Shown here: one piece after another, positions 1-20,398 of the stretch | How the letters are laid out: each line of letters opens with the position of its first letter | Numbering within the stretch: position 1 is the first letter of the stretch | Assembly: GCA_963977015.1 (NCBI GenBank) | Contig: CAXBMO010000046.1 | Coordinates: forward strand, 1-20,398 | DNA length: 20,398 nt | Direction: 5' to 3' | Source: an uncultured bacterium | Lineage (GTDB): Bacteria > Verrucomicrobiota > Verrucomicrobiia > Verrucomicrobiales > DEV007 | The notes under the pieces: generated by a model | Database searches by the model: none | What the model was told of the DNA's origin: nothing | What the model saw: the letters and a program-made list of their open reading frames with translations, nothing else | Position numbers and translations under genes: made by a program

Positions 1-239
1 GGGTAGCGCAGAACTTCAGTTTTCAAGTGTCCATTTTTCGGGAAACAGGTCAGAAAGTCGCGAGAAAATTTCCCTCTGTGAAGGTGAATTCAATAGTTGG
101 CATTTTTCTGACTGCTAACCTTCAGTTCAGAATAGGTCGCCTCTTTCCAACGCCTCCTCATTGCGACTCAGAATAGCTCAACCCTGTTCATAGTCCAGGT
201 CGACTCACGCCACATCGAAGCTAGGAAATGCAAACAATT

Positions 240-10014: not shown

Positions 10015-10086
10015 GCACGGATAGCTCAGCGGTAGAGCATCTGGTTTACACCCAGGCGGTCGGGGGTTCAAATCCCTCTCCGTGCA
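10015..10086 (+). tRNA. tRNA-Val (anticodon TAC), CCA not encoded
   Basis: Acceptor stem GCACGGA/TCCGTGC plus discriminator A; D arm GCTC-AGCGGTA-GAGC; anticodon arm TCTGG-TT TAC AC-CCAGG; T arm GGGGG-TTCAAAT-CCCTC. Confidence 0.96.
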
Positions 10087-10247
10087 CGTTTTTTTCTCTG
10101 GGGCAACCACCGCATCTCAACGGGTTGACGGCTCTCGAGTCTACAAGGCCTCCACCAACATTCGGGGACGGCTGTTTTTGCGCCCAAGGCAATTCCACAA
10201 GGGGGCAGACGTTGGAGCGATGAAGAGCATCCTCTAACGCCCAAACG

Positions 10248-10279
10248 AAAAAAGGCGATCTGAAATTCAGACCGCCTTT
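10248..10279 (-). terminator. Rho-independent terminator of the left YRG gene pair
   Basis: Minus strand reads AAAGGCGGTCTGAATTTCAGATCGCC-TTTTTT: long stem followed by a U6 tract, about 36 nt downstream of the stop at 10316. Confidence 0.8.
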
Positions 10280-10315
10280 GATCACGTCGAGTTTGCTGAT
10301 CGAGTCAGCGTTTCT

Positions 10316-10519
10316 TTAGCGATTGAAGGTTCCGGTTTCGCCGCGGAAGGTGACTTCCACATCCTTTTTTTGATGAGGCTTGGTGTTGGTTTCGCCGGCC
10401 GCGCCGCGATATTGGACGAGTTGGCTGCCTTGTTGCTGTTGCATCTGCTCGGAGCGTCCATTTTTGAGTTCGGACAGTTCGGCTGAGGCTCCGCGGTAGG
10501 TGATCGTTGAATTTTTCAT
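10316..10519 (-). CDS. YRG-motif mini-protein, copy A (67 aa)
   Basis: ATG..TAA frame conserved in 4 copies; many differences between copies are synonymous in this frame; motifs ITYRG, VQYRG, VTFRG. Confidence 0.8.
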   Translation of the reverse strand: MKNSTITYRGASAELSELKNGRSEQMQQQQGSQLVQYRGAAGETNTKPHQKKDVEVTFRGETGTFNR

Positions 10520-10576
10520 TGTCGTATTTTGGTTGGAATGAGATTGAATTGGTTGGTTGAGCGAATCAGTTTTTCC

Positions 10577-10786
10577 TTAGCGATTGAAGGTTCCGGTTTC
10601 GCCCCGGAAAGTGATTTCCACATCCTTTTTCTGATGAGCCTTGGTGTTGGTTTCACCGGTTGCGCCACGGTATTGGACGAGTTGACTGCCTTGTTGCTGT
10701 TGCATCTGCATCTGCTCGGAGCGTCCATTTTTGAGTTCGGACAGTTCGGCTGAGGCTCCGCGGTAGGTGATCGTTGAATTTTTCAT
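10577..10786 (-). CDS. YRG-motif mini-protein, copy B (69 aa; in-frame QM duplication)
   Basis: ATG at 10786 is equivalent to the start in the other copies; 6-nt in-frame duplication (EQMQMQ); the longer start at 10879 in the ORF track lies inside the candidate promoter. Confidence 0.8.
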   Translation of the reverse strand: MKNSTITYRGASAELSELKNGRSEQMQMQQQQGSQLVQYRGATGETNTKAHQKKDVEITFRGETGTFNR

Positions 10787-10872
10787 TGTCGTAATTGGTT
10801 TGGATTGAATTGAATTGGTTGGTTTCAGCTTTCGCTGAGGGAAACCTGTTTGTTTCGTTGAAAGAGTATTAA

Positions 10873-10888
10873 GCGCCAATCATGCCAA
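10873..10888 (-). promoter_or_regulatory. Candidate sigma-54 (-24/-12) promoter of the YRG gene pair
   Basis: Minus strand TTGGCATGATTGGCGC: GG (10886-10885), exactly 10 nt, GC (10874-10873); TGGCATG resembles the TGGCACG consensus, but the TT before GC is absent. Confidence 0.5.
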
Positions 10889-11004
10889 CTTTTTCTCACC
10901 CGGCATTAACTTACTCATTACCAGGGATTTATGGAGTTTAAAAAATTACGCTTCGGTATTTCCCGAAATTTCAGCCCCCTTTCTGATCACCGCTCTTCCA
11001 CCCG

Positions 11005-11043
11005 GTGGTAACTCATTTACCACAGACCTGAACCCGAGTTACC
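11005..11043. promoter_or_regulatory. Inverted repeats, possible activator (bEBP) binding sites
   Basis: GTGGTAA-CTCAT-TTACCAC (11005-11023) and GGTAACTC (11007-11014) / GAGTTACC (11036-11043). Confidence 0.4.
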
Positions 11044-11206
11044 TTCTGAGACCTGGAATGCATTGCGAAACGAAAAGGCGTAGGTCTTCCTCAAAAATTA
11101 TTGGGAACAAAAATGTAACGCCCGCGCACTCCAAAGCCAATTCCATGATTGCAGTATCCTTAATCGTTCAAGTTTTAATGGATATTTTCAGTTGAAATAA
11201 GCGAAC

Positions 11207-11227
11207 ACTCGATTACATGTATCGAGT
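11207..11227. promoter_or_regulatory. Palindromic operator-like site upstream of the RM operon
   Basis: ACTCGAT-TACATGT-ATCGAGT, just downstream of a TTGAAA -35-like hexamer at 11192-11197. Confidence 0.45.
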
Positions 11228-11401
11228 ATCGCCAGTACTGGAGAAAGCCACACGACCAAAAAGTTGGGGCTTTCGGCAGTAACCGATCACCCCAAACATC
11301 TATCCAGCCGAAGCCGGAGTCAGACGTCGCAACTCATGATGATGGCAAGTGGCTGGATTTTCAAATCCTAAAACTAATTAACCAACCCTGATTATTACAT
11401 C

Positions 11402-12121
11402 ATGAGTACAAGTATTGCTATTCAGCAAACTCCATCCGCTCAGGTGCGCCAAGCACCCAGAATGAGCATCAATTCTCTCGCGAAGTATTGGGACACCAGC
11501 AGTCCACTTAAACGTCTGACCATTCTTCGGGGGCAAAAGTTCCCGAAGGATTACATCGTGTCGTGGTACAAAGACTCAATGGACCCGATTTCGGACTTTT
11601 TGACGGATCCAAACCATGACACTTCCATTATCACAGGTGCAATTTCCGTAATTCGGGCGAAGCCCGCTTTGAACGACCATCAGGAATCGGTCAAAGACGT
11701 TAATGTCCAAGCCCTGAGGCTGTTCCTTAGCGGAATTCAAAATTTCCCTCTCGGAGATTATGATTTTCAGCGGAAGGACAACCAGGCTCCCCACTCCACC
11801 ATCAATGGCCTGTCGATTAGCGTTCGACCGGAGTTTGAGTTGATCTACCGCGGAACCGGGAATCGTCTTGGCGCTCTGAAATTGTACTTCAGCAAATCGG
11901 ATCCCCTGTCCGTGGATGCTGGGGCCATGGTTGCAATGGTCGTTAAGCAGCACACAGAACGCCACAATGCCACCCAAGAACGGGTAAATCATCGACATTG
12001 CTTCGTGATTGACGTATTCGCGAACAACATCCATGTGGGGCCGCAGGCGACCGCCCAGCGTCGAAATAGCCTCACCGCTGCATGCGACGAAATTGTTGCC
12101 CGTTGGCCCAGCATCACGTAA
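11402..12121 (+). CDS. Hypothetical protein (239 aa), possibly a degenerate PD-(D/E)xK-like fold
   Basis: Long ORF with ATG after an A/C-rich leader, 16 nt upstream of the next gene; beta-strand pattern ISVRPE...GALKLYFSK...CFVIDV; fold call is inference. Confidence 0.8.
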   Translation: MSTSIAIQQTPSAQVRQAPRMSINSLAKYWDTSSPLKRLTILRGQKFPKDYIVSWYKDSMDPISDFLTDPNHDTSIITGAISVIRAKPALNDHQESVKDVNVQALRLFLSGIQNFPLGDYDFQRKDNQAPHSTINGLSISVRPEFELIYRGTGNRLGALKLYFSKSDPLSVDAGAMVAMVVKQHTERHNATQERVNHRHCFVIDVFANNIHVGPQATAQRRNSLTAACDEIVARWPSIT

Positions 12122-12137
12122 TCCTCACACGCCAAAA

Positions 12138-12713
12138 ATGCAAACCACGCCACTCTCCCAGCTCCTGGAATCGATTCGTGCCGGACACCAGTTCCGGTCC
12201 CGGATCGATCCGGAGCCGGAGGGTGAGTATCGAATCGTGCAAGGCAAGGACATCAACCGCAGCCGGAAAATCGTGGTGGACGAATTGACCCGCGTTGAGC
12301 AGCGCCACATCAAAGACCCTGAACGGAACTGCCTCCGGCCTGGCGAAGTGCTTTTCATGGCGCGGGGAACACGTTTAATGGCCACGGTCGTGGACGAAAC
12401 GATTCCTCCTCAAACTGTGGCGGTTTCCAGTTTTCATGTTTTGGTCCCTAACACTGACCTCCTTTTGCCTGAGTATTTGGTCTGGGCAATCAATGACGAA
12501 ACTGCCCAATCGTGGCTCGTAAGCAATATCAGCGGAACCACCATTCCCATGATCACTCAGAAAACGCTCCTTTCGCTCCCCCTTCCGACTCCTTCCATCC
12601 AATCGCAGCATCGTTTTGTTCAACTGCTTCGCCTTGCGGAGAAGGAACGTGAATTGGCCGAGCAACTTTACAAGACACGCCAACAAATGCTGAGAGGCAT
12701 CCTCCAATCTTAA
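12138..12713 (+). CDS. Half-size type I RM specificity-subunit-like protein (single TRD, about 191 aa)
   Basis: ATG 12138 (MQTTPLSQL); Methylase_S-like pattern IVQGKDI, LRPGEVLFMARG, LLPEYLVWAIN, SGTTIPMI, LPLPTPSIQSQ-coiled coil; directly upstream of hsdM. Confidence 0.8.
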   Translation: MQTTPLSQLLESIRAGHQFRSRIDPEPEGEYRIVQGKDINRSRKIVVDELTRVEQRHIKDPERNCLRPGEVLFMARGTRLMATVVDETIPPQTVAVSSFHVLVPNTDLLLPEYLVWAINDETAQSWLVSNISGTTIPMITQKTLLSLPLPTPSIQSQHRFVQLLRLAEKERELAEQLYKTRQQMLRGILQS

Positions 12714-12731
12714 TCGAAATTTCCCTTCAAC

Positions 12732-14318
12732 ATGAGCAAAGCCAAATCCGCTCCCACTAAACGCGGTAAGTCTGCGCGAAAGACTACCAAGCGCAAAAAT
12801 GCGGGCGCAAAAACTACCGCGCCAACCACCCAAGACCGAAAGGACGAAATCAATCGCGTCGCTTGGGCCGCTTGCGACACGTTTCGCGGCGTGATGGACT
12901 CGTCCACCTACAAAGACTACGTCCTAACGACATTGTTTATCAAATATCTGAGCGATGTGCGTCGCCAGAAAATTGAAGAGCTAACCGAACAGTTTGGCGA
13001 TGACAAAGCAATGATTCAACGCCGCCTCAGTCGTGAACGTTTTCTCATTCCGGCGAAGGCCGATTTTTACCACCTCTTCGAACACCGCAACGCCGAGAAC
13101 ATTGGCGCACTCATCAATGGCGCCCTTGACGAAATTGAGGACGAGAATAAAGCAAAGCTCGAAGGCGTTTTCCGGAAAATCGACTTCAACTCCGAAGTTC
13201 ACTTTGGCGAAACGCGCGACCGGAACCGCCGCCTAAAACACTTGCTTGAGGATTTCTATCCGCTCGATCTACGGCCTGCCTCAGTTGGTGATGCCGATAT
13301 TATCGGAGATGTTTACGAATTCTTGATCGCGCGCTTTGCAAGCGACGCCGGCAAGAAAGGCGGCGAGTTCTATACGCCCGGCGAAGTTGCCACTCTCTTG
13401 GCGCGCCTCCTGGATCCAAAACCGGGCGACCGCATCTGTGATCCGGCGTGTGGTTCTGGTTCCCTGCTTATCAAAGTCGCCAAGGAAGTCGGCAGCGAAA
13501 ACTTTTCAGCTTACGGGCAGGAGAACAACAATCAAACTTACGCACTCGCGCGGATGAATCTCTTTCTTCACGGGTTGGATAGTGCGCGAATCGAATGGTG
13601 CGACACGTTGAATTCTCCCAAACTGGTTGATAACAAAGGCCGCCTCATCAAATTCGACGTTCTTGTCGCCAATCCGCCGTTTTCGCTCGACAAATGGGGA
13701 GCGGAACATGCTGCCTCGGACCGGCATGCTCGCTTTCACCGCGGTATTCCGCCCAAGAGCAAGGGCGATTTTGCGTTCATCAGTCACATGGTCGAAACTG
13801 CGGTTGAGGGTTCTGGAAAAGTCGGTGTCATTGTGCCACACGGCGTGCTTTTTCGTGGCGGCTCGGAGGGAAAAATTCGGGAGTCCTTTGTTGAGGAAAA
13901 CTTGATCGAAGCTGTCATCGGCCTGCCGCCAAACCTCTTCTTTGGGACGGGAATTCCCGCCGCAATTCTGCTCTTCAACAAAGGAAAAACCACCAGTGAT
14001 GTACTTTTCATTGATGCTAGCGGAAAGGACTGTTTTGAGCAGGGAACGAACCAGAACCGGCTCCGCGAGGTGGATATCGAGCGAATTGTGACGGCGTTTC
14101 GCGGTTTTTCGGATATCGAGAAGTTTGCGGCACGGATTCCGGTGGAGACGATTCGGGAGAATGAATACAATCTGAACATACCGCGGTATGTCGATACGTT
14201 TGAGGAGGAAGCCCCAGTAGATTTGAACGCAGTGCAGGTGGAGATCGATCGGCTAGAGGGCGAGTTGGTTGAGGTAAGGAGGGAAATGCGAAAATACTTG
14301 GAGGAGCTAGGAGTATGA
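12732..14318 (+). CDS. hsdM: Type I RM methyltransferase subunit M (N6-adenine)
   Basis: WAACDTFRG, GEFYTP, motif I DPACGSGSLL, motif IV NPPF, PHGVLFRG, YNLNIPRYVDTF. Confidence 0.97.
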   Translation: MSKAKSAPTKRGKSARKTTKRKNAGAKTTAPTTQDRKDEINRVAWAACDTFRGVMDSSTYKDYVLTTLFIKYLSDVRRQKIEELTEQFGDDKAMIQRRLSRERFLIPAKADFYHLFEHRNAENIGALINGALDEIEDENKAKLEGVFRKIDFNSEVHFGETRDRNRRLKHLLEDFYPLDLRPASVGDADIIGDVYEFLIARFASDAGKKGGEFYTPGEVATLLARLLDPKPGDRICDPACGSGSLLIKVAKEVGSENFSAYGQENNNQTYALARMNLFLHGLDSARIEWCDTLNSPKLVDNKGRLIKFDVLVANPPFSLDKWGAEHAASDRHARFHRGIPPKSKGDFAFISHMVETAVEGSGKVGVIVPHGVLFRGGSEGKIRESFVEENLIEAVIGLPPNLFFGTGIPAAILLFNKGKTTSDVLFIDASGKDCFEQGTNQNRLREVDIERIVTAFRGFSDIEKFAARIPVETIRENEYNLNIPRYVDTFEEEAPVDLNAVQVEIDRLEGELVEVRREMRKYLEELGV

Positions 14319-15553
14319 ACTGGGAGGAGGTCAAGATTGGCGAGATTGCCACGCTCATAAATGGTCGGGGTTTCAAGCCACATGAGTGGTCTTCAACAGG
14401 ATTGCCCATAATAAGAATTCAGAATCTAAACGGATCTAGTGAATTCAATTTCTACACAGGAGAGTTTGCTGAAAAGATCAGAGTTCGCCAAGGTGATCTA
14501 CTCTTTGCTTGGTCTGGCAGCCGCGGCTCATCGTTTGGCCCACATTTTTGGAAACGTTCCGAAAATGGACTCCTAAATTACCACATTTGGCGGATCGAAT
14601 GTTCGGAACGGGTTGATAAGCTGTTTTTTTTCGCTGTCTTACAACAACTGACATTGCAGATTGAGAGTGATGCTCATGGCGCTGCCGGATTGGTTCATAC
14701 CCAGAAGAATATCGTAGAGAAATGGAAAGTGCGATTGCCATCGATGCCGGTTCAACGCAAAATCGCAGCCATACTCACCACGATTGATCGGAAAATCGAA
14801 ATCCAAGAGAAACTCATTGAGGCGAGAACTGAGCGTCAACGCGGATTGCGGCAACAGTTACTAAGCGGCGCAACTCGCTTTCCAGAATACCGCAATAAGC
14901 CTTGGGTAGAGCGTCGATTGGAGGATGTGGCCCAAAATGAATCGCAGCGGAACGGTAGCCGGTTCGGGACCGACAGGCTCTATGGAGTAACCAAAACGGA
15001 AGGAGTGATACCGATGCGCGAACACGTGAAAGGCGAGAAGTTCGAGCGCTGCAAGTTGGTTGAGCCGAATTGGTTTGCCTACAATCCAATGCGTCTCAAC
15101 ATCGGTTCGATCGCGCGTTGGCAAGGTGAACGTGAGGTGATGGTGAGTGGCGATTACGTTGTGTTTTCCTGCGACGAACGACTGCTTGCGCCTGAATATC
15201 TCGATCATCTTCGCCGGACGCGATTGTGGGAACATTTCGTGAATGCTTCTGGAAATGGGAGTGTGCGAGTTCGGATCTATTTCAAGGATCTTGGGCGAAT
15301 AAGATTTTCGTTACCTCCGATAGAAGAACAACGCCGCATCGCTCAATTACTCGACACCGGCGATCGCGAAATCGTCCTCCTCAAGCGTCAACTGCATGCT
15401 CTGCGGGAGCAAAAACGCGGACTGATGCAAAAGCTACTGACTGGTGAATGGAAAGTCAGCGTGGATGAAGAGGCCGACGTGCCAAAGCCTCGCAAGAAGG
15501 CGAAAAAGAAGGACAAGGCATCTCGGAAACAGACGAGAAGGCGAAAGAAATGA
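14315..15553 (+). CDS. hsdS: Type I RM specificity subunit S (two TRDs)
   Basis: W..V.IGEI start, central LPSMPVQRKIA...GLRQQLL and distal LPPIEEQRRIA...KRGLMQKLLTG conserved regions; ATGA overlaps with hsdM and hsdR. Confidence 0.95.
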   Translation: MNWEEVKIGEIATLINGRGFKPHEWSSTGLPIIRIQNLNGSSEFNFYTGEFAEKIRVRQGDLLFAWSGSRGSSFGPHFWKRSENGLLNYHIWRIECSERVDKLFFFAVLQQLTLQIESDAHGAAGLVHTQKNIVEKWKVRLPSMPVQRKIAAILTTIDRKIEIQEKLIEARTERQRGLRQQLLSGATRFPEYRNKPWVERRLEDVAQNESQRNGSRFGTDRLYGVTKTEGVIPMREHVKGEKFERCKLVEPNWFAYNPMRLNIGSIARWQGEREVMVSGDYVVFSCDERLLAPEYLDHLRRTRLWEHFVNASGNGSVRVRIYFKDLGRIRFSLPPIEEQRRIAQLLDTGDREIVLLKRQLHALREQKRGLMQKLLTGEWKVSVDEEADVPKPRKKAKKKDKASRKQTRRRKK

Positions 15554-18500
15554 CCTCCTACTTCGACAGCGCCGAAAACGGTGAACGCCCCGATTCCGAG
15601 GAACGGCTGATTTCTCAAATTCCGGCGATCGAGCTGCTGATGAAAATGGGGTTCACCTATCTCCGACCGGAGGAGGCGAATGAATTACGCGGAGGCAGAA
15701 CATCGCAGGTCATTCTCACCTCAATTCTGCGGCAGCAACTGGAAAAGCTGAACCGCATTTCCTACCGCGGAAACGAATATCCGTTTGATGATACCGCAAT
15801 CGATGGCGCGATTGCCGCAATCACCAATCTAGCTTACGAAAGCTTGCTGCTTACAAGTGAGCAGATTTATGATTTGCTCTCTCTGGGGAAGAGCTTTCTC
15901 CAAACTGTTGAGGGCGACCGGCGTAGCTTTGATATCGGTTTTATCGACTGGGAGAACCCGGAAAATAACGCATTTCATGTCACGGAGGAATTCATCGTAG
16001 AGCGGAGTGGCTCCAAGGACAAATACAGGCCGGATATCGTGCTTTTCGTCAATGGAATCCCCCTCGCAGTTATTGAGTGCAAGCCTCCTGGCCACGTCGA
16101 AGAAGGAATCGATGATCACCTGCTTAAGCAGCAGGAAGACGGAATCACCAAGCTCTATCAGTATTGTCAGATTCTTGGAGCCATCGACAAAGAATCCGGG
16201 ATGTATGGCACGCTGGGGACGAAGAAGAAGTTTTGGAGTCAGTGGAAGGCCGAGGTCAATCAATCAGCCTTGCGCAAAATCGTCAATGCTCATTTGCCGG
16301 ATGAAGATCGAGTGAGGCTTTTTTGGAGACGTGCAGAATCTGCCCGGGTCGCCGAAGATCCTGCGGAACGGCTCCCAACTGCCCAAGACCGGTTCCTTTT
16401 TGCCCTTTTTCGGCCAGAGGAGCTTCTGAAGTTGACCCGCCTGTTTGTCCTCTATGACGCCGGAGAGAAGAAGATTGCGAGATACCAGCAATACCGCGCG
16501 GTTCGCAATGCTCTGGAGCGAGTGAAAACTCGAACGGACGAAGGCGTGCGTCGAGGTGGAGTGGTTTGGCACACCCAAGGCAGTGGGAAGTCGCTCACGA
16601 TGGTGATGTTAGGTAAATCGATTGCACTCGATCCGGACCTTGCGGGATCTCGCCTGATTCTGGTGACGGATCGCGTGGAGTTGGATAAGCAGATTCGCGA
16701 TACGTTTCGCTACTGTGGCTATGACCCGGTTCTCGCCAAGGATGGTCAGGATCTCCGACAGCTCATCGAAGGCGGCAAACGGACGGTGGTTACCACGGTG
16801 ATCAACAAGTTTGAACGCGCGGTAAAGGGGCGCAAAAACCTGGATGAAGACGAGAACCTCTTTGTGTTGGTCGATGAAGGGCACCGGACGAACTTCGGTT
16901 CCTTTCATGCCCTCATGCGCAAAGCCCTGCCCCGTGCCTGTTACCTGGGTTTTACCGGCACGCCGGTGATGAAGCAGGATCGGAACAATGTGAAGGTCTT
17001 TGGAGATTTCATCGATAAATACACGATTGATGAAGCGGTGGAAGACGAGGCAGTGGTTCGCCTGCTTTACGAAGGTCGCCACATCGAGCAGGAGGTCGAT
17101 CAGAGGACTCTGGACAAGTGGTTTGAACGCCTGATGCGCGATCGTTCAGAGAGAGAGAAAGCCGATTTTAAGCGGAAGTTTGGCAACGCCGATCATGTCA
17201 ATCGATCTGAACAGAGGCTGGAGGCGATTGCCTGGGACATCAGCGAACATTTTGCAAATCGGTTTCAGAGCACAGGAGCCAAGGGGCAACTGGTGGCCCC
17301 ACGAAAGGACGTGGCCCTTCGCTATCATCATATGTTGAACCAGATTGGTATGGTTAGCAGCGAGGTTCTCATTTCAGGGCCAGACAACCGGGAGGATGAG
17401 GAGGATTGTGATGAGGCGGCAGTGCCAACGGTTCGCAAATTTTGGAAGGAAATGATGGATCGCTTCCGAACGGAGGAGCGCTACAACGAAAGTTTGATCA
17501 ACCGGTTCAAAGGGCGCAAAGACCCCGAGATTATTATCGTGGTAAGCAAGCTTCTGACCGGTTTTGACGCGCCTAACAACACCGTTCTTTACATCGACAA
17601 GCCGCTGAAAGGGCACACGCTGCTCCAAGCTATCGCGAGGGTGAATCGACGGCGGGAAGGAAAAGACTTTGGCTACATCATCGACTACTACGGTGTTTTG
17701 GGGGATTTGAACCGAGCGCTATCCAGCTACGAAGCTTTGGCGGAGTTTGAGGAGGACGATTTGGCCCGCGCCCTGACCCCGATTGAAGAGGAGACGCAGA
17801 ATCTTCCCCAGGCCCACGCCGATCTTTGGGCAGTCTTCGCGGAAGTGAAGAACCGGAAGGACGACGAGCAATTTGCGCAGTGCCTTCAGTTTCAGGATCG
17901 GCGCGATTTGTTCTACGAGCGGCTGAATCGATTCTCCCGGTTGTTTGAAATGGCCATGTCGTCGATGAAGTTTCTCGAAAAGACACCGGAGGCGACCGTG
18001 CAGCGTTACCGTGAGGATCTGCGCTACTTCCAGAAGCTCAGGACGAGGATTCGCAAGCGTTACGCAGAAGAAGTTGACTACCAGGAATACGAAAAGCGAA
18101 TTCAGAAGCTCATCGATCGCTATGTCGGAGCAGGAGAAGTTACCCAGGTAACTGAGTTGGTGGATATCTTCGACAAAGAAAAATTCGATGCCGAGGTCGA
18201 ACAGTTAGAAGGCAAAGCTTCGCGTGCTGACACCATTGCCCACCGCACAGAGCGAACTATTCGTGAAAAGTGGGACGAAGACCCTGTCTTCTACGACCGC
18301 TTCTCAAAGATCCTCAAGAAAGTGATCGCCGACTTCAGGGCGCAGCGTATCACCGATGCTGAATACCTTGAGAAAGTCACCGACGTGCTGCATACGGTTC
18401 GAAATCGAGGTGAAGACGAAACGCCCGAGCCCTTGAAACATCGTGAGGAAGCTCGCGCGTTTTACGGGCACGCGTTGGATACGCTCGAATCCGCCGGGAA

Positions 18501-18729
18501 CCGCAAAAATTGGTGCGCGGAGATTGGCCTGGCTGTGGACGAGATCGTAGTCGGCAATCTGGTTGTCGATTGGACAGATAAGGATGAAATCAAGAACCGC
18601 ATTCGAAATGAAATTGAAGACTACCTTCTCAAGTTCGCCAAGGAGCAGGACATAGAGTTTGGCTTCGATGAGATTGACCGATTTCTCGATGATGTCCTAC
18701 CTACCGCGGAGACGCGCTATCACCGATGA
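15550..18729 (+). CDS. hsdR: Type I RM restriction subunit R (HsdR)
   Basis: Nuclease RPDIVLFVNGIPLAVIECK; Walker A HTQGSGKS; DEGHR; GFTGTP; LLTGFDAP; QAIARVNR. Confidence 0.97.
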   Translation: MTSYFDSAENGERPDSEERLISQIPAIELLMKMGFTYLRPEEANELRGGRTSQVILTSILRQQLEKLNRISYRGNEYPFDDTAIDGAIAAITNLAYESLLLTSEQIYDLLSLGKSFLQTVEGDRRSFDIGFIDWENPENNAFHVTEEFIVERSGSKDKYRPDIVLFVNGIPLAVIECKPPGHVEEGIDDHLLKQQEDGITKLYQYCQILGAIDKESGMYGTLGTKKKFWSQWKAEVNQSALRKIVNAHLPDEDRVRLFWRRAESARVAEDPAERLPTAQDRFLFALFRPEELLKLTRLFVLYDAGEKKIARYQQYRAVRNALERVKTRTDEGVRRGGVVWHTQGSGKSLTMVMLGKSIALDPDLAGSRLILVTDRVELDKQIRDTFRYCGYDPVLAKDGQDLRQLIEGGKRTVVTTVINKFERAVKGRKNLDEDENLFVLVDEGHRTNFGSFHALMRKALPRACYLGFTGTPVMKQDRNNVKVFGDFIDKYTIDEAVEDEAVVRLLYEGRHIEQEVDQRTLDKWFERLMRDRSEREKADFKRKFGNADHVNRSEQRLEAIAWDISEHFANRFQSTGAKGQLVAPRKDVALRYHHMLNQIGMVSSEVLISGPDNREDEEDCDEAAVPTVRKFWKEMMDRFRTEERYNESLINRFKGRKDPEIIIVVSKLLTGFDAPNNTVLYIDKPLKGHTLLQAIARVNRRREGKDFGYIIDYYGVLGDLNRALSSYEALAEFEEDDLARALTPIEEETQNLPQAHADLWAVFAEVKNRKDDEQFAQCLQFQDRRDLFYERLNRFSRLFEMAMSSMKFLEKTPEATVQRYREDLRYFQKLRTRIRKRYAEEVDYQEYEKRIQKLIDRYVGAGEVTQVTELVDIFDKEKFDAEVEQLEGKASRADTIAHRTERTIREKWDEDPVFYDRFSKILKKVIADFRAQRITDAEYLEKVTDVLHTVRNRGEDETPEPLKHREEARAFYGHALDTLESAGNRKNWCAEIGLAVDEIVVGNLVVDWTDKDEIKNRIRNEIEDYLLKFAKEQDIEFGFDEIDRFLDDVLPTAETRYHR

Positions 18730-19430
18730 GACACGAGATCGACTACGGCTCCGGCAAGATTGAATTCGAGCTGCGGTATCGCGCTGCGGATTCGATCAGC
18801 TTCACCGTAAAACCGAGCGGGGAAGTCGAAGTGATTGCGCCAAAGAAAAAGCCGCTTGAGGCGATTCAGGACCGCGTCTTGAAGAGAGCGAAATGGATTC
18901 GCAAGCAACAACGTGAGTTTGAGACCTACGAAAACAGGGCCGATGACAGACGATATGTTAGCGGAGAATCCTGTCGTTACCTTGGCCGGCAATACCGGCT
19001 GCGGGTGGTCGAGCAAGAACCGCTTGGAGTCGCGATGTCCCGCCCTCACCTTCGAGTTTCGGTGCGTAATCGGCACGATTCGGAGGAAATACAACGGCGC
19101 CTCGAATCATGGCTTCGTGAACGCGCCAAGATTCGATTCTCAGAGCGCTTTGAGCGATGCCTCGAACAAGTTCGCCGCCATGGCATCACGAGCGAAGGCT
19201 TCAAGCTTCGCCGGATGGCTAAGCGCTGGGGATCTTGCTCCAGGGCTGGTGAGATTCTACTGAATCCCGAATTGATCAAAGCGCCCGTCGATTGCATTGA
19301 CTACGTGATTCTTCACGAACTCTGCCACCTCAAGGAATTCGAACACTCTCCTGCATTCTACCGGCTCCAGGATCGAGTCTGTCCAGACTGGGTTCGCCGA
19401 AAACACAGGCTTGAACGGGTGGAACTCTGA
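18726..19430 (+). CDS. YgjP/DUF45 (M48/SprT-like) zinc-dependent hydrolase associated with type I RM
   Basis: GE...YLG, RWGSCS, IDYVILHELCHL..HS..F (HExxH); ATGA overlap with hsdR. Confidence 0.9.
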   Translation: MRHEIDYGSGKIEFELRYRAADSISFTVKPSGEVEVIAPKKKPLEAIQDRVLKRAKWIRKQQREFETYENRADDRRYVSGESCRYLGRQYRLRVVEQEPLGVAMSRPHLRVSVRNRHDSEEIQRRLESWLRERAKIRFSERFERCLEQVRRHGITSEGFKLRRMAKRWGSCSRAGEILLNPELIKAPVDCIDYVILHELCHLKEFEHSPAFYRLQDRVCPDWVRRKHRLERVEL

Positions 19431-19436
19431 TCGCAA

Positions 19437-19850
19437 CTACGACTTTCGTGCGTTTGGGCAGGGTTTCTCCTCCATCCAATCAACCCGATGAAACCCACAT
19501 TCGAAAATCTCGTGCAGCGCATAGTGTTCGGATCCAACCCAGGCTCCGCCGCGCTCTGAGATCGGAGCATTGCAGTGAGGGCACCGATACTCGTTCAGCT
19601 CTTCCGTCGCCAACTCCAACTCAGTTTGCAGCTCCTTGAGCGCTTCTCCGCTTGCTAGTTTTTCAAGCGTAGCCCGCGGGTGCTTTTCGTAAATGTCGGG
19701 TAGTACCACGCGGAGAACTTCGATGGCGATGTCTTCAGCCTTCTTTCTGAACGTCGTAATGGCAATTTTGTCAGCAAGTGGCGGGCTGAAGTTCAGAATG
19801 TCGATTTCGAAAGCGGCTGATGCTCCTAGGATAAGAAGCGATCTTCGAGC
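19437..19850 (-). pseudogene. 5'-truncated gene remnant with a C-terminal Cys (Zn-ribbon-like) domain
   Basis: Frame stays open and protein-like upstream of GTG 19709 (…AAFEIDILNFSPPLADKIAITTFRKKAEDIAIEVLRVVLPDIYE…) with no ATG/GTG/TTG until it runs into the repeat at 19851; C-terminus CPHC…ECG…PCP. Confidence 0.6.
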
Positions 19851-19853
19851 ACG

Positions 19854-19885
19854 AAAAAAGGCGATCTGAAATTCAGACCGCCTTT
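19854..19885 (-). terminator. Rho-independent terminator of the right YRG gene pair
   Basis: Identical to 10248-10279. Confidence 0.8.
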
Positions 19886-19926
19886 GATCACGTCGAGTTT
19901 GCTGACCGAGTCAGCGATTCCCTAGC

Positions 19927-20130
19927 TTAGCGATTGAAGGTTCCGGTTTCGCCGCGGAAGGTGACTTCCACGTCCTTTTTCTGATGAGGCTTGGTGTTGG
20001 TTTCACCGGCCGCGCCGCGGTATTGGACGAGTTGGCTGCCTTGTTGCTGTTGCAACTGCTCGGAGCGTCCATTTTTGAGTTCGGACAGTTCGGCTGAGGC
20101 TCCGCGGTAGGTGATCGTTGAATTTTTCAT
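19927..20130 (-). CDS. YRG-motif mini-protein, copy C (67 aa)
   Basis: Differs from copy A by one residue (M to L) plus synonymous changes. Confidence 0.8.
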   Translation of the reverse strand: MKNSTITYRGASAELSELKNGRSEQLQQQQGSQLVQYRGAAGETNTKPHQKKDVEVTFRGETGTFNR

Positions 20131-20187
20131 TGTCGTATTTTGGTTGGAATGGGATTGAATTGGTTGATTGAGCGAATCAGAGGTTCG

Positions 20188-20391
20188 TTAGCGATTGAAG
20201 GTTCCGGTTTCGCCGCGGAAGGTGATTTCCACGTCCTTTTTCTGATGAGGCTTGGTGTTGGTTTCGCCGGTTGCGCCGCGGTATTGGACGAGTTGGCTGC
20301 CTTGTTGCTGTTGCAACTGCTCGGAGCGTCCATTTTTGAGTTCGGACAGTTCGGCTGAGGCTCCGCGGTAGGTGATCGTTGAATTTTTCAT
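20188..20391 (-). CDS. YRG-motif mini-protein, copy D (67 aa)
   Basis: Near-identical to A-C; 261 bp from copy C. Confidence 0.8.
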   Translation of the reverse strand: MKNSTITYRGASAELSELKNGRSEQLQQQQGSQLVQYRGATGETNTKPHQKKDVEITFRGETGTFNR

Positions 20392-20398
20392 TGTCGTA

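Follow-up and report, generated by a model that had tools for sequence, protein, structure and literature searches.

How does a restriction-modification (RM) system come to lie between two copies of one chromosomal segment, beside a tRNA gene and with no recombinase at hand? This question is raised by the present locus from an uncultured bacterium of the Verrucomicrobiota. The window (i.e. the whole stretch of 20,398 nucleotides that was analysed) is the entire contig C46 (1-20398) of G000, the genome under study, which comprises 6.9 Mb on 51 contigs. A predicted type I RM block follows a tRNA-Val gene and is bracketed by direct repeats, each carrying a terminator and a pair of small genes with YRG motifs (i.e. 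a cassette); the contig stops inside the second repeat copy. An initial annotation had proposed that the cassettes act as a landing pad for exchange of defence genes by homologous recombination. The explanation favoured here, with moderate confidence, is that insertion and duplication were one event, which left the RM block exactly at the joint of two 801-bp chromosomal copies without the action of a recombinase.

Extent of the direct repeat

Alignment of positions 10245-10830 with 19851-20398 by blastn (E = 0) revealed two copies in the same orientation with 94.0% identity over 554 alignment columns. The copies are spaced 9606 nt apart (9611 past a 5-nt indel) and flank the RM block, as had been described in the initial annotation. 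Both carry a minus-strand terminator-like hairpin and two intact minus-strand genes. Two earlier measurements were revised: copy 1 begins 157 nt, and not 159 bp, after tRNA-Val, and the repeat, given as ~550 bp from a contig that ends in copy 2, extends to 801 bp once the first 66 bases of a second G000 contig (i.e. C40) are counted.

C40 is the candidate continuation of copy 2. Positions C40:1-66 equal window 10980-11045 at 64 of 66 positions (97%), the first 55 being exact, which fits an assembly k-mer overlap of the same size as at other contig ends. Of the 100 further contig ends compared, a single one matched the cassette, namely the 5' end of C40. Copy 2 most likely continues through ~186 unassembled bases into C40, and the match to 10980-11045 sets the repeat at 801 bp (10245-11045) and the cargo at 8805 bp (11046-19850). 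A contig as short as this ~186-base piece would fall under the 3-kb minimum contig size of the assembly (the smallest contig of G000 is 3002 bp). The repeat is thus supported by 548 assembled bp of copy 2 (94%) and by 66 bp on C40 (97%). No residual similarity was detected past the repeat ends, the 60 nt outside each boundary aligning no better than shuffles (the score was reached by 240 of 500 shuffles on the right and by 43 of 500 on the left). C40 itself starts with 8 kb of ordinary genes, e.g. for a kinase-like AAA_33 protein, a sulfotransferase and a deaminase.

The locus was also examined in public sequencing runs, six of which hold the flank and four of which (X1-X4) were compared as Logan contigs. 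X1, X3 and X4, which share a study, may represent the source sample; X2 stems from another study. These comparisons cover assembled contigs only, from which rare variants are dropped, so that rare excision is not visible, and the statements made on them rest on the pieces listed, further pieces and loose ends being in existence. The contigs of X1, X3 and X4 were mostly at least 99% alike (46 of 63 in X1), on flank and cargo. One X1 contig of 212 nt maps to 10835-11046 with 8 differences and is probably the missing part of copy 2.

A wrong join through the repeat, with the RM block belonging e.g. to an episome or to another locus, is a very unlikely source of this map. The contig does end in the repeat, and identical runs of 96 and 82 nt between the copies exceed the 55-nt contig-end overlap, so that phasing relied on read pairs. 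Against such an artefact, the copies differ at 33 columns, copy 1 has unique DNA on both sides, an independent X1 contig (331 nt, with 4 other letters) spans the joint of flank and copy 1 at 10104-10434, and C40 alone can continue copy 2.

Absence of a recombinase and probable fit to insertion with long target duplication

Whole-genome six-frame searches of G000 located Phage_integrase at six places, all on other contigs, and Resolvase at one place, none of it on C46 or C40; rve and DDE_Tnp_1 were each found at no place in the genome. A Pfam scan of the open reading frames (ORFs) of the window detected no mobility genes; transposase families beyond these four were not searched. No second copy of the tRNA-Val 3' half was present on C46 or C40, the best match being 12 nt (E 0.08). 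The earlier statement that the locus has no recombinase, transposase or duplicated tRNA end therefore holds for the four families tested on C46 and C40. It had also been proposed that an integrase or attachment site might lie past position 20398; C40 proved to be without an integrase (Phage_integrase search) and without a second tRNA-Val 3' half.

The repeats encode only two YRG proteins of 67-69 aa and no transposase, which argues against a composite transposon. The tRNA-linked genomic islands of tyrosine integrases offer a closer likeness, as foreign defence genes here lie right after a tRNA gene. In contrast to those islands, no integrase was found, and the tRNA, although it is the left neighbour of the repeat-cargo structure, stands 157 nt before the repeat and outside it. 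Neither hallmark of an integrase-type tRNA island (i.e. an integrase at one end and a tRNA-3' repeat forming attL/attR) was observed. An island made by an integrase at tRNA-Val, with the integrase and attR hidden in unassembled DNA, is extremely unlikely: the structure adjoins the tRNA gene and synteny with a relative, G003, breaks 18 nt after it, but C46 and C40 hold no integrase, resolvase or tRNA 3'-end repeat, the tRNA is not part of the repeat, and C40 opens with 8 kb of ordinary genes.

Because the cargo sits exactly at the joint of the two units, a single event is the best account of both duplication and insertion. For RM genes inserted with a long target duplication, Furuta, Abe & Kobayashi 2010 (PMC2853133) name as class criteria R and M genes inside, an insert of <20 kb, a duplication of >30 bp and no other mobile element. 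At the present locus hsdM-S-R lie inside (12732-18729), the insert is 8805 bp, the repeat is 801 bp and the four recombinase families were negative. The likeness to the class, as described in that text, comprises an insert of R, M and S genes, flanking chromosomal repeats, the lack of an integrase or transposase and a slightly deviant GC content, and type I systems are among the published cases it covers (PMC2853133). The locus differs from the cases described there in that the insert adds a gene stump and two extra genes, and in that the empty site was not found.

The cargo and signs of its transfer

The features of the locus are listed in Table 1. As judged from the reading frames, the cargo holds a complete type I RM system, with hsdM, hsdS and hsdR intact and adjacent. 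The gene upstream of the half-sized specificity gene, orf239, had no Pfam, PADLOC or NCBIfam match, and its likeness to PD-(D/E)XK nucleases in a structure model is a lead only. A PD-(D/E)XK-like gene and a gene for an HsdS-like protein with a single target recognition domain (TRD) precede hsdM both here (11402-12713) and in another genome, G263 (L123 2868-4167); orf239 and the half-S may together be another effector pair, as yet uncharacterised, that travels with this type I family. At the right end of the cargo, residues 18-100 of the gene stump align to residues 108-190 of a 208-aa TIR protein (P0016) with 61% identity. The TIR domain of P0016 occupies residues 8-122, and the stump is thus a 5'-truncated gene of which only the part after the TIR domain is left. 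Such a stump fits a fragment of a donor chromosome.

Table 1. Features of the window, in map order
Feature	Position	Strand	Evidence or remark
Hsp90, PSD/PSCyt-domain protein, TonB, ExbD, ExbB and MoeA genes	left 10 kb of window		Pfam
tRNA-Val, anticodon tac	10015..10087	+	ARAGORN; Rfam tRNA 71.7 bits
Direct repeat copy 1, 801 bp: terminator, two small genes and upstream leader	10245..11045		blastn; right end from C40:1-66
Terminator-like hairpin and T-run ending the small-gene pair	10251..10279	-	13-pair stem, 6 G-C pairs, T-rich tail
YRG-a, 67 aa, DUF4278/IF17-like, three YRG/FRG motifs	10316..10519	-	PF14105 19.4 bits, cut-off 25.3
YRG-b, 69 aa, paralogue with two-codon insertion	10577..10786	-	
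Leader/promoter region of the small-gene pair, within the repeat unit	10787..11045	-	copy-2 counterpart: C40:1-66 and unassembled gap
Non-coding AT-rich left end of cargo	11046..11401		GC 0.43-0.46; unique in genome
orf239, first gene of conserved module	11402..12121	+	PD-(D/E)XK-nuclease-like by Atlas structure model
Single-TRD (half) HsdS-like gene	12138..12713	+	Methylase_S 2.4e-7; PADLOC Specificity_I 2.9e-18
hsdM	12732..14318	+	N6_Mtase 4e-101, HsdM_N; TIGR00497 292.6 bits (cut-off 242.75)
hsdS, two TRDs	14315..15553	+	Methylase_S, 2 stretches; PADLOC Specificity_I 4e-73
hsdR	15550..18729	+	HSDR_N, SWI2_SNF2, T1R_D3, T1RH-like_C; TIGR00348 462.5 bits (cut-off 284.55)
YgjP-like metallopeptidase gene, last of conserved module	18726..19430	+	PF01863 3e-60
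TIR-domain gene stump abutting copy 2	19437..19799	-	no start codon; frame open up to 19850
Direct repeat copy 2, cut by contig end	19851..20398		equivalent to 10245-10793; holds YRG-c and YRG-d
YRG-c, copy 2	19927..20130	-	intact
YRG-d, copy 2	20188..20391	-	intact

In a collection of 5.8 billion proteins, the nearest HsdR (76% identical) belongs to G263, which represents another genus of the same family. The gene order recurs there, with amino acid identities of 55% for orf239, 59% for the half-S, 85% for hsdM, 36% for hsdS, 76% for hsdR and 63% for ygjP, and the G263 module lies at a different chromosomal site, between a POT transporter gene and ROK/dxr genes. The presence of the same six genes in another genus and at another site indicates that the module is horizontally mobile. 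Neither YRG genes nor a TIR stump were found near the G263 module, and no long repeats flank it beyond chance-like pairs of 20-58 nt. In that genome, hsdS and hsdR are separated by an insertion comprising an Abi_2 (abortive-infection-like) gene and a 193-aa ORF (G263:C81, L123 7017-8593). None of three genomes of the same genus as G000 (completeness 87, 92 and 59%) matched the module at E<=1e-100. The moeA gene of G020, from the genus of G263, is 64% identical at the nucleotide level, as compared to 71-76% for hsdR and hsdM of G263, and the GC of the cargo is 0.52 versus 0.56 for the genome. The contrast in nucleotide identity, the GC and the phyletic pattern are modest but consistent signs of what would be horizontal transfer.

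The left 10 kb of the window hold ordinary genes. At its extreme left, the first 52-55 bases (window 1-55) recur with 98-100% identity at 12 ends of 11 other contigs; this stretch resembles the margin of a multi-copy element, perhaps an insertion sequence, that was left unassembled and at which the assembly breaks.

Age of the duplication and comparison with other strains

The two copies differ by 22 mismatches and 11 gap columns in 554 (4% substitutions), with identical runs of 55, 45, 34, 96, 27 and 82 nt between them. Comparison of codons showed four synonymous and one nonsynonymous difference between YRG-a and YRG-c, and seven synonymous and two nonsynonymous differences, plus the two-codon insertion in b, between YRG-b and YRG-d. 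All four genes are intact and, by these counts, appear to be under purifying selection. At position-specific sites a resembles c and b resembles d, indicating that the two genes were copied together. Within a cassette, both genes have certain sites in common, a pattern that fits gene conversion. The X2 flanks differ from G000 at 106 of 5992 letters (~1.8%, summed over 8 listed pieces); as the copies are 4% apart, the duplication is not recent, or one copy derives from a more distant lineage. The copies thus appear old, and the locus does not resemble a site of recent or visibly ongoing exchange.

An older tandem duplication of the cassette, giving four tandem genes, followed by a later and unrelated RM insertion between the units is distinctly unlikely. 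Tandem YRG arrays do exist (e.g. G003:C25, with three copies at the contig start), pairs are usual, the copies are old, and gene conversion is suggested by the sites that genes of one cassette have in common. Two separate events would, however, require the insertion to have hit the unit joint to the base on both sides, and the other tandem arrays are packed, with no terminator and no 260-nt leader between the genes.

Run X2 shares both outer joints of the structure. In one of its contigs the repeat ends at 11045 and is followed by sequence that agrees with C40:67-96 at 29 of 30 positions. Another matches G000 from 19741 onward through the stump/copy-2 joint and is unlike G000 for 221 nt leftward, these letters having no match anywhere in G000. 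X2 therefore appears to share the repeat-to-C40 and stump-to-copy-2 joints and not the adjacent interior; the interior next to copy 2 differs between the strains. A pop-out between the repeats would remove the stump, and as X2 keeps the stump, it is not a plain deletion derivative. The stump/copy-2 joint, at least, would predate the split from this ~2% diverged strain. X2 had no contigs at >=90% likeness on 11071-15739 or 17074-19074 while all flank bins were covered, which is not evidence that the RM block is missing. Within hsdR, at 16412-16602, X2 has short pieces of at least 90% likeness whose two ends are both loose. An allele diverged in the manner of the G263 hsdR was rejected as their source, since its stretches of >=90% likeness fall at 17005-17057 and 17803-17868. 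A diverged TIR-gene allele was likewise considered for the 30 loose X2 letters at 19740; one frame resembles the family, and the stretch is too short for a claim. No deletion or circle joint across the cargo was found in the four runs, a weak negative as only contigs were compared, so that the junctions proposed in the initial annotation were not recovered. The only joint listed across the four runs was an unrelated 109-nt skip at 1733-1843 in X1.

The DNA from moeA through the tRNA to the cassette was compared with 40 GTDB relatives. The best match was G003 (59% complete), with moeA 78% identical at the nucleotide level; similarity is lost 18 nt after tRNA-Val, where a prepilin-like gene comes next. 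G001 and G002 matched the tRNA-Val on contigs other than that of moeA. The C40 kinase has homologues at other positions in G001 and G002 and gave no match in the 59% complete G003. Searches of metagenome contigs gave no match for the exact 34-nt terminator pattern, and 80 loci for the MoeA protein, the best 54% identical.

Several of these points weigh against a single insertion with duplication. The continuity of copy 2 into C40 is drawn across an unassembled gap. Ancestral order is unreadable, as similarity to G003, the nearest relative in GTDB, is lost 18 nt past tRNA-Val. X2 keeps the stump/copy-2 joint yet diverges inward, which a simple insertion/deletion polymorphism does not appear to predict; its pattern fits interior replacement, and so leans towards the view taken in the initial annotation. 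An empty-site comparison with one target copy is the defining test of the class according to the consulted portion of Furuta et al. (PMC2853133), and a single-copy empty site of 801 bp was seen in no genome or run. Repeats in the examples given there are 46-423 bp, so that the present repeat, which is 801 bp, gene-containing and 94-96% identical, is longer and more diverged (PMC2853133).

Cassettes as possible arms for interior replacement

Of 301 genomes sampled across the order, 13 (G000 counted) carried the YRG family, usually as tandem pairs, and none of the 12 other YRG-bearing genomes had two pairs on one contig. At 10 other YRG loci, the 86 ORFs up to 7 kb away include, according to Pfam, genes for a chaperone, RecN, a transglutaminase-like protein, a sulfatase and GltB, as well as one YhgA-like transposase and one SNF2 helicase, and RM or recognisable defence genes were found within this distance at none of the 10 (Pfam). 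A tblastn comparison of 22 G000 proteins with 13 YRG loci detected no synteny with the window, yielding only the YRG matches and one PSD-family paralogue.

These data bear on the swap slot envisaged in the initial annotation, in which the cassettes are standing arms of homology, conspecifics exchange the interior and the RM block is the current occupant. Such a slot is possible, if doubtful. X2 has the arms in common with G000 and a different interior close to copy 2, the two copies share identical stretches of up to 96 nt, and the cargo is a mobile module. Conversely, the contents of X2 between the arms are unreadable and the X2 contig could come from another locus; no other YRG genome (0 of 12) has two pairs on a contig and no other locus (0 of 10) has defence neighbours; and, as any flanking homology suffices for exchange, nothing singles out the cassette. 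The notion of a landing pad stands in so far as the RM block is mobile and lies exactly between the repeats and the interior next to copy 2 differs in X2, and falters on the other YRG loci, which are without defence genes. As a general role for the cassette it finds no support, since the two-pair arrangement recurs in no other genome and the G263 module has neither YRG genes nor repeats.

A likeness can also be drawn to variable hsd loci. The E. coli hsd locus is occupied by EcoKI, EcoB or non-RM genes, according to the introduction of PMC2853133. As described there, a type I block differs between close strains within conserved flanks (here, the X2 loose end at 19740); the present locus differs in that the flanks are two copies of one segment. 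In its strongest form, the exchange model has the cassettes as standing arms that trade defence blocks (type I RM variants, TIR genes) without a recombinase, the RM block leaving as a 9.6-kb circle and retargeting the slot; this is rather improbable. If true, departure as a 9.6-kb circle with one cassette, which would guide the block back to this tRNA-linked slot in a new host, would supply the release-and-reinfection stage of the RM 'life cycle', a stage never observed according to Furuta et al. (PMC2853133).

The YRG small genes and their family

The four YRG proteins of the window scored 19.4-21.2 bits against PF14105 (DUF4278), below the Pfam gathering cut-off of 25.3. PF14105 matched 17 of 17 aligned family members at E<=0.01 and is listed for more distant family members in a precomputed annotation table. 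The small proteins thus appear to be distant DUF4278 relatives. According to Klaehn et al. 2018 (PMC6212724), DUF4278 forms part of the cyanobacterial glutamine synthetase inactivating factor IF17. The likeness to the IF17/DUF4278 factors of cyanobacteria, as presented there (PMC6212724), lies in small proteins with repeated YRG motifs and is drawn from sequence alone; the differences are the sub-cut-off PF14105 scores, the Verrucomicrobiota host and the lack of a detectable glutamine riboswitch, neither the glnA nor the Downstream-peptide model matching upstream of the small genes at the gathering threshold or E<=10.

A single-copy YRG paralogue adjoins a transglutaminase-like gene in L005 (2642-2842), L031 and L034, with Pfam support, and apparently also in L019, as judged by eye only. 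In L031 the paralogue lies ~3 kb from a gene for the large subunit of glutamate synthase. These neighbourhoods give hints of a nitrogen-regulation role in Verrucomicrobiota. The IF17-like side lead has no bearing on the repeat structure.

Two further YRG loci stood out. At L029 54-7606 (G255:C29), sixteen tRNA genes lie in 7.6 kb, ~1.6 kb from a YRG pair. At L018 2-692 (G003:C25), at least three tandem YRG genes stand at the contig start, with further copies on two other short contigs; these short-contig positions in G003 indicate that the YRG family breaks assemblies repeatedly.

Proposed mechanism and significance

In the favoured explanation, the RM block would have been inserted in one event with a long target duplication, as described for RM genes; Nobusato et al. 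reportedly observed RM gene insertion with long target duplication in 2000. By an alternative route, a circle carrying one copy of the segment would have integrated by a single crossover, which is topologically equivalent and would give the same map. Campbell-type integration of a circle with one homologous segment yields an insert between direct repeats. Its reverse reaction would here produce a 9606-bp circle, and no circle, amplification or deletion joint was present in the contigs. After this old event, the copies would have drifted mainly at synonymous sites while the four small genes were kept intact.

The repeats may now be passive homology through which the block could be deleted or amplified by RecA recombination, and which could serve as arms for replacement of the interior from strain to strain. 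Recombination by RecA between long identical runs permits deletion or amplification, and the initial annotation was correct on this established ground, given identical runs of up to 96 nt. Post-segregational killing, an established property of RM systems, would counteract loss of the block. From the known biology of recombination, the repeats could plausibly still serve for excision, amplification or swapping today; the discussion of PMC2853133 refers to the amplification of RM genes through repeats.

Insertion without a recombinase is a pattern already known for such defence genes, and the locus is a tidy, fairly ordinary case. It adds a clean example from the Verrucomicrobiota to the short list of RM blocks that have moved without a recombinase and left long direct repeats, with a repeat that is unusually long, old and gene-bearing. 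As it stands, no current view is changed. If sister strains carry different cargo between the cassettes, the locus would test the exchange of defence genes by plain homologous recombination and, in that case, also whether RM blocks leave as circles.

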